64,000 nt of DNA from a virus (IMGVR_UViG_3300025718_000006:1916-65915), one strand, 5' to 3'. Positions 29,125 through 33,664 are shown, counted from the stretch's first letter. Numbers and translations are program-made. The notes: generated by a model not told the origin, from the letters alone.

Positions 29125-29265
29125 GTGAATAAGAATTTAAAAATATATGTGTCTTTTAAAAACAATGATGATGATTATAAGATATATAAACATGTTAGAA
29201 ATAAAGGCGATATGTCTAATTATATCAAAGATTTAATTAAAAATGATATGTTTAAAAAGAATTAG
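29125..29265 (+). CDS. Small RHH protein (46 aa), ParR/CopG/MobC-like
   Basis: MNKNLKIYVSFKNNDDDYKIYKHVRNKGDMSNYIKDLIKNDMFKKN resembles the ParR N-terminus. Confidence 0.6.
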   Translation: MNKNLKIYVSFKNNDDDYKIYKHVRNKGDMSNYIKDLIKNDMFKKN

Positions 29266-29359
29266 TAAAAATTCTATAAAACACCATGGCCACATATCCA
29301 CCACTCACTAACGCACTAACACCACACGCTGCCATGCCAATCGTACCAATTATAATCAT
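29252..29359 (-). CDS. 35-aa hydrophobic peptide
   Basis: RBS GAGGTG; MIIIGTIGMAACGVSALVSGGYVAMVFYRIFTNSF; explains the local C/A-rich plus-strand skew. Confidence 0.55.
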   Translation of the reverse strand: MIIIGTIGMAACGVSALVSGGYVAMVFYRIFTNSF

Positions 29360-29439
29360 ATCTAACACCTCGCTTTATATTTATAATAATAGTTTGCCCT
29401 TTTTAATAGGAATTATACCAATTTATAAGGAGTTTAAAA

Positions 29440-30876
29440 ATGGAATTACTTGCAGTAGGCACAAAAATAGGTTGGGCGGTAGTCACTGGGTGTATTTGCC
29501 AGGGTTCGATTATGGGATATAAAAATTTTCATAAAGTTACTAAAATAGGAACTGCATATAAAGGTACTAGAAAAGATATAAAGGATTTTTTAGGAACTAA
29601 AGGTATAAGGTTAAGCCAACGATATATTTTGTCAGAAAAAACAATGTATGAGCATATTGCAATATTTGGGAAAACGGGTTCTTACAAAAGTAGTGCTGAA
29701 TATATTCCTAATTTATTATCTAACAATTTACCAATGTCGAGCCTTATAATTTCAGACGTAAAAGGCGAAATTTTTGAAAAAACTAGCTGGTATCAGAAAA
29801 ATGTGTGCGGTCGAGAAATCAAAGTATTCTGTCCAATGAATCCAGGGAAAAGCATAAGCATCAATCCTTTAGCAATATGTAGAGGTTTTAGTGATGTAAA
29901 TAATTTAGCACAAACTATATTAAATAATGCTGATAAAGGTGTAAACGATAAAAACAGTGGCGGTGCCGAATGGTTAGTATTAAGCAAACCTCTCTTAGTA
30001 GCGGTATTGCTTTATTGTAGACATAGAGGTGGAGAACAATGCAATATTACCACCGCTTTAGATTTAATCGTTACACATAGCAATTACGACCTAGAAAAGC
30101 TATTTCAAAACACTACAACTGAAATACAAGACCAATGGAGTATATTTAAAATGAGTTTAGGAGCAAAAGGGCTTGAAAGTAGCATAAAAACAACACTAGC
30201 AAGTGCATTGCAATCATTTAGTGATTTTAAAATAGCTTCCACGACCTCAAACAATGAATTTAATCCAACAGAATTAAGACAACGACCAATTGCACTATAT
30301 ATTATTAACAGTGAAGTGCAAGCTGATTATCTAGCACCTTTAATGGCAACGGTATTTAGCCAATTAATCAATTTCAATTTAGATTATTATGATGCAAATT
30401 CTAATTGCTTACCAATATTTAATTTTTATGATGAATATGCTAATTTGGGAATAATTTCCGGAATGAATCACATTATAACGGCTGCTAGATCAAGAAAATT
30501 TAGTCTTAATTTATGTATTCATGATATTCGTCAATTGTTTAGACTTTATGGCCAAGATTTATCTTACACAATGCTTAACAATCTTACAACTAAAATAGTT
30601 CTTCCTGGAATAAGCGAACCAGTTACAATCGATTATTTATCTAAAATTTGTGGAGAATGTGAAATCGAAGTTAAATCCAAAAGCAAAACAGGCGATAAAA
30701 TAACAGTGTCTACTTCTAAACAGAAAAAGAGACTCTATAATGACAATGAAATAAGATGTTTACCTGATAAAACCTGCATAATAATTATAAATAATAAGCA
30801 AGTGGTTAGTGATGATCTTAATGTTTATTTTGAAAATAAAGAATATGAAGGTAGAGACATAAAACAGATTCTTTAA
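29440..30876 (+). CDS. virD4: Type IV coupling protein (VirD4/TraG-like)
   Basis: N-terminal TM; EHIAIFGKTGSYKS (variant Walker A), IISDVKGEI, INPL, FYDEYANLG (Walker B), ARSRKF.L.L.IHD..QL...YG, NNLTTKI. Confidence 0.82.
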   Translation: MELLAVGTKIGWAVVTGCICQGSIMGYKNFHKVTKIGTAYKGTRKDIKDFLGTKGIRLSQRYILSEKTMYEHIAIFGKTGSYKSSAEYIPNLLSNNLPMSSLIISDVKGEIFEKTSWYQKNVCGREIKVFCPMNPGKSISINPLAICRGFSDVNNLAQTILNNADKGVNDKNSGGAEWLVLSKPLLVAVLLYCRHRGGEQCNITTALDLIVTHSNYDLEKLFQNTTTEIQDQWSIFKMSLGAKGLESSIKTTLASALQSFSDFKIASTTSNNEFNPTELRQRPIALYIINSEVQADYLAPLMATVFSQLINFNLDYYDANSNCLPIFNFYDEYANLGIISGMNHIITAARSRKFSLNLCIHDIRQLFRLYGQDLSYTMLNNLTTKIVLPGISEPVTIDYLSKICGECEIEVKSKSKTGDKITVSTSKQKKRLYNDNEIRCLPDKTCIIIINNKQVVSDDLNVYFENKEYEGRDIKQIL

Positions 30877-30914
30877 TACGTTGAGCGGAGCGAAAACGAA
30901 AAGGAGTAGTATGT

Positions 30915-30945
30915 TTTTCCTTTGATTTTTTTCCTTTGATTTTTT
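30915..30945 (+). repeat. Tandem 14-bp direct repeat
   Basis: TTTCCTTTGATTTT twice, in the intergenic gap before the mob genes. Confidence 0.5.
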
Positions 30946-30997
30946 ACCTATTCATCCTTTAGTTTCCAATTGTTAATTAATTTTATGGAGGTAAATA

Positions 30998-31366
30998 TTG
31001 TTAAGTATATTAGGATATTTTGGATATAGTTTGTTAGGGTTTGGGATTGGAGGTTTATTTTTTAAAGGTATAGATAAAAAGGTTATTATGGAGGAATTTA
31101 GAAAATTTAAAAAAGTTAAAGATAATGAAATTTTGCAATTTAATGAAAATAAACAAACAAATACTTTGCAGTTACAGGAATTAATTAAAGATAAAACAGA
31201 ATTAAATAAATTGTATAATCGTTCTGTTAGGAATATAGAATTGAAGGATAAAGAATTGGAAGATATCCAGCAACAAATAGATCAACTTATGCTACAAATG
31301 AAACTTGATAAAAGACCACAAAAGGTAGAAAAGGAAAGTTTCGAAACATTTTTAAGTAATAAATAG
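30998..31366 (+). CDS. Membrane-anchored coiled-coil protein
   Basis: N-terminal TM (ILGYFGYSLLGFGIGGLFF) then heptad-rich sequence; TTG follows GGAGG. Confidence 0.65.
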   Translation: MLSILGYFGYSLLGFGIGGLFFKGIDKKVIMEEFRKFKKVKDNEILQFNENKQTNTLQLQELIKDKTELNKLYNRSVRNIELKDKELEDIQQQIDQLMLQMKLDKRPQKVEKESFETFLSNK

Positions 31367-31375
31367 GGGGATATT

Positions 31376-32356: not shown

Positions 32357-32514
32357 AATATGATATCAATTATTTAGGATTTAGGGGCGAAGTTGTTGAA
32401 ACTATAAATTATAAGAATGAAAAAGAGTTTGAAAAGGAAATAAGAGATTGCTATAATACCGGCGCACCAATTGACTTTAAATATACTGAAAATGAACAGG
32501 AAATCGAAAGATGA
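32353..32514 (+). CDS. Small protein ending EQEIER (53 aa)
   Basis: GTGA overlap with the mobV stop; not in the track. Confidence 0.6.
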   Translation: MKYDINYLGFRGEVVETINYKNEKEFEKEIRDCYNTGAPIDFKYTENEQEIER

Positions 32515-32666
32515 TATTAGAATATGAGAGTACTACATGGGTGAAAACATTATCTGAAAGTAAAATGACAATTGAAAACAAAATCGAAGTAGAGGACCTA
32601 TTAAAAGAAATGAGAAATTATGATTGGATTGATGAAAAGAAAAAGTTTTTGAAAAGAGTAATTTAA
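32511..32666 (+). CDS. Small hypothetical protein (51 aa)
   Basis: ATGA overlap; MILEYESTTWVKTLSE... Confidence 0.5.
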   Translation: MILEYESTTWVKTLSESKMTIENKIEVEDLLKEMRNYDWIDEKKKFLKRVI

Positions 32667-32678
32667 AGGAGTTATAAA

Positions 32679-32897
32679 ATGGCATTGGCAATATTAATAG
32701 GCAGTAAAATAACTAAAGGTTTAATAGTAGCTTATCTAATTTCAGCAGGAAAGTTTTTAAAGTATGAAAAATATAGCACCATGGTTAAAAATGCAGATAT
32801 TGAAATGAAAATAATTAGAGGTGGCGTATTATCAGAAACCGCACATGGAGTTAATATCCTATACACGTTAGGTCAAATAGCACTAGCAATAATATAA
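32679..32897 (+). CDS. Small membrane-associated protein
   Basis: Hydrophobic N- and C-termini; AGGAG RBS. Confidence 0.55.
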   Translation: MALAILIGSKITKGLIVAYLISAGKFLKYEKYSTMVKNADIEMKIIRGGVLSETAHGVNILYTLGQIALAII

Positions 32898-32909
32898 GGA
32901 GCCTATAAA

Positions 32910-33101
32910 ATGGATTTAGCTGCAAGGCTGGAAGAATTATATCATACTATTATGTTAGATGATTGTTTAAATGAGGAAAGCAGAGAATGGGAGAACGCTA
33001 GACACGAGATTTTAAGTGAAGCTATTAAGGATAGTTGCAACTATTACGGTGAAAGACGTTGTGAACATGAGTATGAATCTGAGAGAGAAATAGAGAGGTA
33101 G
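32910..33101 (+). CDS. Small acidic protein ending EREIER
   Basis: 63 aa; AGGAG RBS. Confidence 0.6.
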   Translation: MDLAARLEELYHTIMLDDCLNEESREWENARHEILSEAIKDSCNYYGERRCEHEYESEREIER

Positions 33102-33157
33102 CAAAGGAAACGTTAACTATTTCAATTTTACCTTAGATATAGTAAAGTATTTAAGAG

Positions 33158-33664
33158 GTGAAATTGATGAACAATACCGAATTTGAAGAACTAAATGTAA
33201 TGAAACAGATTGACTATGTTAACAAATTACTTGAAAAGGGGGAAAGTTTAACTAAAATAACGCACGACCTAGAGGTGGGAAGGTCAACATTAGGCAGAAA
33301 TTTTAAGAAAGCTGACTATAGTTTCGATTCCACGACTAAGCAGTACGTCAAACCAAATGTACCACATTCCGAAAAGGATGGCAATACTCCAAATATTGAC
33401 AATGAAATTAGAAACATCAAAGGAAACGTTTCTGATGTTGGAAACAAAACAAAAACTATAACTGGAAACATTGGTGAAAACGTAAATGAATCTATTGTGA
33501 TTACTAAACTTGTTTCTATTCCAAAGCCGAAACGGACTTCATATTATTTGAACACAAATACGGTAAAAAAGATTGAAAAGCTAGCTAAAGAAAGCAATAT
33601 GGGAATTTCTGAATTTTTGCAGCTTTTTTTGGACAAAACATTAGACAAAGTGGAAATAAAATAA
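33158..33664 (+). CDS. Plasmid-type DNA-binding protein (N-terminal HTH, C-terminal RHH)
   Basis: SLTKITHDLEVGRSTLGRNF HTH; KRTSYYL....VKKIEKLAKESNMGISEFL RHH. Confidence 0.7.
   Translation: MKLMNNTEFEELNVMKQIDYVNKLLEKGESLTKITHDLEVGRSTLGRNFKKADYSFDSTTKQYVKPNVPHSEKDGNTPNIDNEIRNIKGNVSDVGNKTKTITGNIGENVNESIVITKLVSIPKPKRTSYYLNTNTVKKIEKLAKESNMGISEFLQLFLDKTLDKVEIK

Follow-up and report, generated by a model that had tools for sequence, protein, structure and literature searches.

Mobilisable elements that carry a relaxase, a type IV coupling protein (T4CP) of their own and an origin of transfer (oriT), and no mating-pair formation genes, are known from CloDF13 and from the integrative and mobilisable elements (IMEs) of Firmicutes, and this architecture is thought to broaden the range of helpers that such elements can use (PMC11389934). 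These are plasmids or integrated islands without virion genes. In pMV158, whose relaxase MobM is the MOBV1 prototype (PDB entry 4lvi), the nick site TAGTGTG/TT is found upstream of the mob operon, on the coding strand and 8 nt past an inverted repeat (PMC5863519); this is a 5.5-kb rolling-circle plasmid with neither a T4CP nor an accessory protein. Phage-plasmids such as P1, N15, SSU5 and those of clostridia are temperate tailed phages with plasmid partition and without an integrase, and in surveys a relaxase or oriT was found in very few of them, mostly large cointegrates or derivatives from which phage genes have been lost (PMC7969092, PMC10879196). Here, we analysed 64,000 nt (hereafter the window) of the virus record IMGVR_UViG_3300025718_000006, i.e. 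bases 1916-65915 of 65,915 bp (G+C content about 30%), where a VirD4-like T4CP, an accessory protein and a MobV relaxase are encoded in the ~66-kb replicon of a tailed phage.

On balance, and going by sequence comparison, we favour the view that this block is a helper-dependent conjugative mobilisation module and a stable part of a ParM-partitioned plasmid-prophage, which would be transferred through it. An intact MobV relaxase, an own T4CP and a candidate oriT are present and mating-pore genes are absent, which is the set of features expected of a mobilisable element at the sequence level; a preliminary description of this DNA had recognised the same signature, and our analysis supports it at that level. 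The spread by three routes suggested there, through virions, through vertical plasmid inheritance and through helper-dependent conjugation, is still an inference. Three findings speak for a function that is maintained: purifying selection on the genes, an analogous cassette in a sister phage and a cassette of this kind on a circular phage-plasmid from culture. The unusual part is the carrier: a standard mobilisation module is maintained in intact phage-plasmids.

The relaxase matches PF01076 with an E value of 9e-29 (101.1 bits against a cut-off of 25.5 bits), exceeds the 100-bit cut-off of the NCBIfam MobV equivalog (104.6 bits) and is aligned by phmmer to MobM of pMV158 (E 5e-9). The HUH motif had been described as intact, and it is: motif I reads HMER (HxxR, residues 51-54) and motif III HMDETTAHIH (residues 143-152), the latter aligning to HLDESTPHMH of MobM, and both catalytic motifs are invariant in five homologues. 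The relaxase family and the HxxR and HxDE..HxH motifs are thus those of pMV158 (PMC5863519). In a related phage recovered from three samples (L001, L002 and L003, here L001-3), the relaxase gene carries a 12-nt insertion (TGAGCAATTTAT; L001:12366-12425), identical in all three, with an in-frame TGA within the HxDE..HxH motif.

Downstream of the T4CP gene we observed, in this order, a weak hairpin (30879-30898), 15 nt, the core GGAG-TAGTATG/TT (30903-30915) and T-rich TTTTTCCTTTGA repeats. The core is one base apart from the nic of pMV158 (TAGTATG/TT versus TAGTGTG/TT) and, as in that plasmid, it stands on the coding strand upstream of the mob genes and behind an inverted repeat; by this likeness, the nick is predicted between G30913 and T30914. 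The spacing from hairpin to nick differs, with about 15 nt and weak stems in the window and 8 nt in pMV158. The core, in the form TAGTAAGTT, TAGTGAGTT or GAGTAAGTT, recurs upstream of the accessory and mob genes in L001, L004, L005, L006, L007, L008 and L011, and in four of these lineages it follows a hairpin at about 15 nt, the sequence of the hairpin varying by locus, while in a more distant type of cassette (L014, L016, L017 and L018) the core lies within a 9-bp hairpin. Altogether, a core preceded by a hairpin of locus-specific sequence was seen in about 10 loci. Furthermore, in 236 kb of non-redundant sequence, 7 of the 13 TAGTAWGTT 9-mers lie in the noncoding DNA that separates T4CP from mob genes, which amounts to ~1.8 kb. 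The architecture of this spacer fits that of a MOBV origin of transfer, for which we consider it a candidate. Another candidate, a C-rich stretch at 29286-29368 with a minus-strand TAGTGCGTTA match, was dropped because the alignment there reflects a conserved gene for a 35-aa peptide with its own ribosome-binding site. A search of Rfam gave no match in 28000-35500, and a promoter and terminator scan was uninformative in DNA as AT-rich as this.

HUH relaxases and the Rep proteins of rolling-circle replication share related chemistry, and a preprint assigns the relaxases of filamentous phage-plasmids to replication (10.1101/2025.11.07.687105), so that MobV might be read as a rolling-circle replication initiator and the conserved site as its double-strand origin. 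We consider this very improbable, and the least probable of the readings discussed here, as the phage has its own replication module with a Phg_2220_C organiser, the L001-3 phage, seen in three samples and otherwise intact, has a broken relaxase, and replication needs no T4CP.

The assignment of the T4CP to the VirD4/TrwB family, already proposed in the preliminary description, holds on profile matches to PF02534 (E 4e-49), PF10412 (TrwB_AAD_bind, 1.5e-22) and PF12696 (TraG-D_C, 1e-17). The best NCBIfam match is the CD1115 VirD4-like family (NF045973), at 187.5 bits and thus under its cut-off of 250 bits, and the relatives in the PDB found by profile are Cagbeta and TrwB. Walker B and the all-alpha domain are kept in comparison to these closest relatives, whereas the sub-cut-off score, the apparent lack of a two-helix membrane domain and the replacement of the Walker A glycine set the protein apart from them. 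An AlphaFold2 model was poor (pLDDT 54.5; best Foldseek matches 8dol and 1e9s) and is uninformative on the geometry of the P-loop. Relatives of about 478 aa form a tight family with 54-88% identity; a scan of genome contigs returned just one fragment of a metagenome-assembled genome. The differences from CloDF13 and the IMEs include the short length of the T4CP (478 aa), its non-canonical Walker A and its partners, an as yet uncharacterised membrane/helical protein and a peptide of 35 aa.

The Walker A sequence had been noted earlier with a caveat; it does read GKTGSYKS and departs from the canonical GxxGxGK[ST], and the deviation is clade-wide. All members of the clade read GKTGSxK[ST], with Y, F, N, R, K, A or C at x, while T79, K83, the following Ser/Thr and the Walker B residues D331-E332 are invariant. 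In the wider neighbourhood of short T4CPs (~430-540 aa, several clades) a residue other than glycine precedes the Walker A lysine in 31 of 164 representatives. Since the deviation is shared by the clade and the T4CP is under purifying selection, GKTGSYKS is not the mark of a pseudogene and is, to judge from the alignments, a tolerated or derived feature. Conceivably, a T4CP with an altered P-loop could also be a dominant-negative competitor for a channel, and subversion of helpers is known for mobilisable elements (PMC11389934); relaxase and T4CP might then interfere with or parasitise a resident conjugative element, blocking a competitor or sensing mating, while the phage DNA itself is not transferred. 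This seems quite improbable to us, given that a conserved cis-acting nic-like site adjoins the genes, that the sister cassette has a canonical ATPase motif and that there is no direct evidence for it.

The carrier was described as a phage, and this is borne out by genes for terminase, portal, major head protein, collagen-like fibre and GH25 endolysin, alongside which the window encodes an ERF recombinase and a sigma factor. With virion, packaging and lysis genes plus ParM, and without an integrase, the replicon is a phage-plasmid by gene content. No tyrosine or serine recombinase, integrase or resolvase is encoded in the whole 65.9-kb record, and neither is a VirB4-type ATPase (no match to PF12846 or PF03135), in agreement with the earlier observation that VirB4 is missing. 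When the contig ends were joined, no long open reading frame (ORF) spanned the junction. A sister contig (G002, IMGVR_UViG_3300025575_000014) runs across the point where the window contig stops, with only about 2.65 kb between the homologues of the flanking genes; this continuity indicates that the window genome is essentially complete and leaves no room for hidden pore genes. A chimeric assembly, which had been named as a possible refutation, can also be dismissed: in a Logan assembly of a public run, a 26.5-kb contig is 100% identical to the window over 26440-33876, from ParM through the HNH gene, T4CP and relaxase to the repressor region, so the block is not an artefact of assembly. The portal protein is without a relative in PLSDB, and those in INPHARED are all below 27% identity. 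The replicon shares with P1, N15, SSU5 and the clostridial phage-plasmids the nature of a temperate tailed phage with plasmid partition and no integrase, but it is unlike the surveyed phage-plasmids in that the phage genomes with the kit appear to be intact and the kit is conserved throughout a lineage.

Alternatively, the module might serve the maintenance of the plasmid-prophage and not its transfer between cells, with Mob_Pre acting at the conserved site in site-specific recombination, multimer resolution or the formation of cointegrates and the T4CP-like ATPase moving or positioning DNA within the cell, for instance during division or sporulation. The Pfam family is indeed named 'Plasmid recombination enzyme', and it can be argued that the cassette always lies beside ParM and ParR-like genes, that its ribbon-helix-helix (RHH) protein is a ParR-like paralogue, that the phage itself encodes neither integrase nor resolvase, and that a deviant Walker A and weak membrane anchoring would suit a non-canonical role of the T4CP. 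However, the TraG-D_C and TrwB_AAD domains are typical of conjugative coupling proteins, the unit of T4CP, accessory protein and MobV is found without ParM in L001, L004, L005 and L009, and the architecture of the nick site is like that of a transfer origin. Moreover, a T4CP that serves maintenance within the cell is not known to us. A maintenance function is therefore, in our opinion, unlikely in comparison to mobilisation.

The preliminary description had proposed a survey of related phages for the same block. Indeed, the unit is present in collinear ~65-kb phages, namely L001-3 (three samples) and L006, and an analogous cassette is found in G002. In L006 the order is ParM, ParR, a small reverse ORF, T4CP, an HNH gene, the accessory gene, MobV and then CI; the ParM/ParR-like pair of the window thus recurs a short way upstream of the T4CP. 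On every contig that is long enough, the T4CP comes with the accessory protein (44-77% identity) and the relaxase (56-73%), including non-phage carriers: L004, a contig of Clostridium estertheticum, L005, a contig with pilus and surface genes, and L009. A more distant cassette, with 34-43% identity, was found on other viral contigs and on complete circular C. botulinum plasmids. The block had no Megablast match in phage and plasmid collections, nor did single-protein scans of viral contigs yield one. Pairwise dN/dS values, which are rough since dS is saturated, were 0.08-0.21 for the T4CP, 0.09-0.23 for the accessory protein and 0.12 for the relaxase. As a separate observation, an element of about 14.8 kb was assembled twice in circularly permuted form (L009:1-14824 and L010:1-14575), with genes for a small terminase, a serine recombinase, an archaeo-eukaryotic primase and a sigma factor in addition to the T4CP/accessory/MobV unit; these genes resemble those of a phage satellite that conjugation could mobilise as well.

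The sister phage G002 (65,392 bp) is collinear with the window over its full length, and its structural proteins are 44-86% identical. In the same slot (30700-35100; loci L034 and L039) it carries a ParM/RHH/T4CP/MobV cassette whose proteins are only 29-38% identical to those of the window, which is of the C. botulinum type with the canonical Walker A APTGEGKT. That the slot has been refilled by an analogous cassette argues for selection on the function itself, and in this phage group a cassette of this kind fills the slot on each of the four long contigs that span it. In the T4CP tree, copies from phages are mixed with non-phage ones, and the cassette of the sister phage falls in another clade. 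This mixture, together with the HNH endonuclease genes inserted around the module and the disrupted relaxase of L001-3, could be expected of a selfish cassette that moves by recombination among clostridial mobile elements and is neutral cargo for the phage, functional or not. We regard this as unlikely, to about the same degree as a maintenance function: dN/dS is low in all three genes, the slot is filled in each of the four long contigs and the swap preserved the function, and neither an integrase nor a transposase is encoded in the cassette itself.

A cultured relative provides further context. The plasmid unnamed2 of C. botulinum Su0604 (NZ_CP022402.1, locus L018) is a complete circular phage-plasmid of 49,878 bp with ParM, Mob_Pre and a T4CP beside lysis genes. 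Its cassette is of the type seen in G002, and its proteins are 35-40% identical to those of the window. The differences are an unrelated, myovirus-type virion module, the canonical Walker A APTGEGKT and the absence of an accessory gene between T4CP and mob. PLSDB/MOB-suite labels this plasmid non-mobilizable despite its Mob_Pre relaxase and T4CP. This exposes a practical gap, and relaxases of this clade seem to escape typing tools.

Several points weigh against mobilisation as the function of the block. In the T4CP of the window, a tyrosine replaces the glycine before the Walker A lysine, and the N-terminus has one marginal hydrophobic stretch (Kyte-Doolittle 1.42), whereas VirD4 and TrwB have two transmembrane segments. 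The hairpins of the candidate oriT are weak (z-scores from +0.4 to -3.7), the core of L009 is on the opposite strand, and G002 is without an exact core. The disrupted relaxase of L001-3 shows that the kit is dispensable and can decay. A search of the two plasmids of C. botulinum Su0604 for a helper type IV secretion system gave no AAA_10/VirB4 match. In previous studies, elements related to conjugation were found in 6 of 222 E. coli phage-plasmids, all of them large, and mob or oriT in only two P1-like phage-plasmids, with many in derivatives from which phage genes had been lost (PMC10123127, PMC10879196). In the literature, the conjugative transfer of a functional phage is not reported. A preprint takes the view that the acquisition of conjugation modules by phage-plasmids is unlikely. 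A study in Listeria describes a different situation, in which plasmids with relaxase and T4CP harbour a prophage, and text searches gave no publication on the clostridial kit described here.

If the block does act in mobilisation, the following sequence of events can be envisaged. The phage would persist as a plasmid, and the MobV relaxase would nick the plus strand downstream of the T4CP gene, at TAGTATG/TT (30913/30914), its histidine nucleophile remaining on the 5' end and the RHH protein possibly assisting. The short T4CP, which the 122-aa accessory protein might tether to the membrane, would pass the relaxase-bound single strand to the mating channel of a co-resident conjugative element. 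Given a nick at this position, the small ORFs at 32353-33101 would be the leading DNA into the recipient. The whole ~66-kb replicon would enter, the relaxase would re-circularise it, and phage replication and ParMR would re-establish it. What the sequence establishes is the identity, intactness and conservation of the genes, the oriT-like element and the lack of pore genes; the nicking, the ATPase activity, the docking to a helper and the transfer are what we infer.

It is a larger claim that an intact tailed-phage lineage has two working routes of spread, by virions and by mobilisation of its plasmid prophage through a helper channel, with a kit that is kept by selection and replaced by an analogous cassette when lost; we put this forward tentatively, as a matter that falls just short of an even call. 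If true, receptor-free transfer of single-stranded DNA would let the phage reach hosts beyond its infection range. Phages and conjugative elements are usually treated as separate routes, and a phage lineage that keeps a complete mobilisation kit, and has relatives among cultured clostridia, would offer a concrete, testable example of both being used by one element. This bears on the host range of phages, on their escape from receptor and restriction barriers and on gene flow among phages, plasmids and satellites.

Table 1. Features of the module and its surroundings (window positions; aa, amino acids).
Feature	Position	Strand	Remarks
GH25 endolysin	18054-19052		
Phage replication organiser	21093-21989		Phg_2220_C
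Actin-like ParM	26683-27585	+	PF17989, PF21522 and PF21523 across the ParM/ParR-like pair (26683..27861)
ParR-like protein	27595-27861	+	88 aa; directly after ParM
RHH-like protein (plausible fold)	29095-29265	+	56 aa (46 aa from GTG at 29125); phrog_4223
Hydrophobic peptide	29252-29359	-	35 aa; strong ribosome-binding site AGAGGTGAT and ATG, codon-wise conservation, eight loci
VirD4/TrwB-family T4CP	29440-30876	+	478 aa; PF02534, PF10412, PF12696
Candidate oriT and promoter region	30877-30997	+	121-nt spacer directly after the T4CP stop
Accessory protein	30998-31366	+	122 aa; hydrophobic N-terminus, then charged helical region
MobV (Mob_Pre) relaxase	31376-32356	+	326 aa; PF01076, NCBIfam MobV equivalog
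Four small ORFs	32353-33101	+	53, 51, 72 and 63 aa
Helix-turn-helix (HTH) protein	33158-33664	+	168 aa; phrog_2727; next to the CI-like repressor
Divergent CI/Cro-like pair	33927-34400 and 34620-34802	- (33927-34400)	
Terminase	51762-53627		
Portal	54658-56784		
Major head protein	61065-62018		
Collagen-like fibre	62483-63793		

The gene preceding the T4CP had been called an RHH gene. That it belongs to a small conserved family in this position is confirmed, as homologues with the common motif VSFK..Y..S.YIK precede the T4CP in L001, L008, G002, L015 and L016; of the fold we can say less. A shallow AlphaFold2 model places helices at residues 25-35 and 40-55 after the conserved 'IYVSFK', and Foldseek gave no PDB match, so that a beta-alpha-alpha (RHH) fold is plausible on the model. 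The protein is a candidate regulator or accessory factor of the relaxosome. The gene is a paralogue of the ParR-like gene after ParM (in the window as in L012:9237-9380, L006:9277-9372 and L034), and some cassettes (G002 and L013) contain both copies.

The gene of the 35-aa peptide is divergent from that of the T4CP and is kept in every cassette examined, the distant cassette of G002 included; the peptide (Kyte-Doolittle 1.9) might be a type I toxin, or else a small partner of the T4CP in the membrane. The membrane/helical gene and the small ORFs listed in the preliminary description are both present. The accessory protein is retained beside T4CP and relaxase in L001, L004-L009 and L011 and may supply the membrane anchoring of the T4CP; searches of Pfam, PHROG and NCBIfam gave no match, and an atlas search was uninformative. 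The four small ORFs are likewise without a family match in Pfam, PHROG and NCBIfam, and only the one at 32910-33101 has a homologue in L001. For the 168-aa gene, previously counted as a 'plasmid-type' part of the module, this label is not supported: it is conserved in the phage relatives and is probably a phage gene outside the transfer kit. The protein has a weak HTH_7 match, and an atlas search leads to HTH_11 and RHH_3 clusters.

HNH endonuclease genes occur at differing spots in and around the module (28119-29012 in the window and L006:11694-12398), and their varied positions among the phages suggest homing-endonuclease traffic. Finally, the window contains a giant ORF of 3757 aa (6167-17440), with homologues of 3378 and 3983 aa in the relatives. 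These homologues carry a DarA_C domain and a weak methyltransferase match, and the product looks like a polyvalent virion protein.

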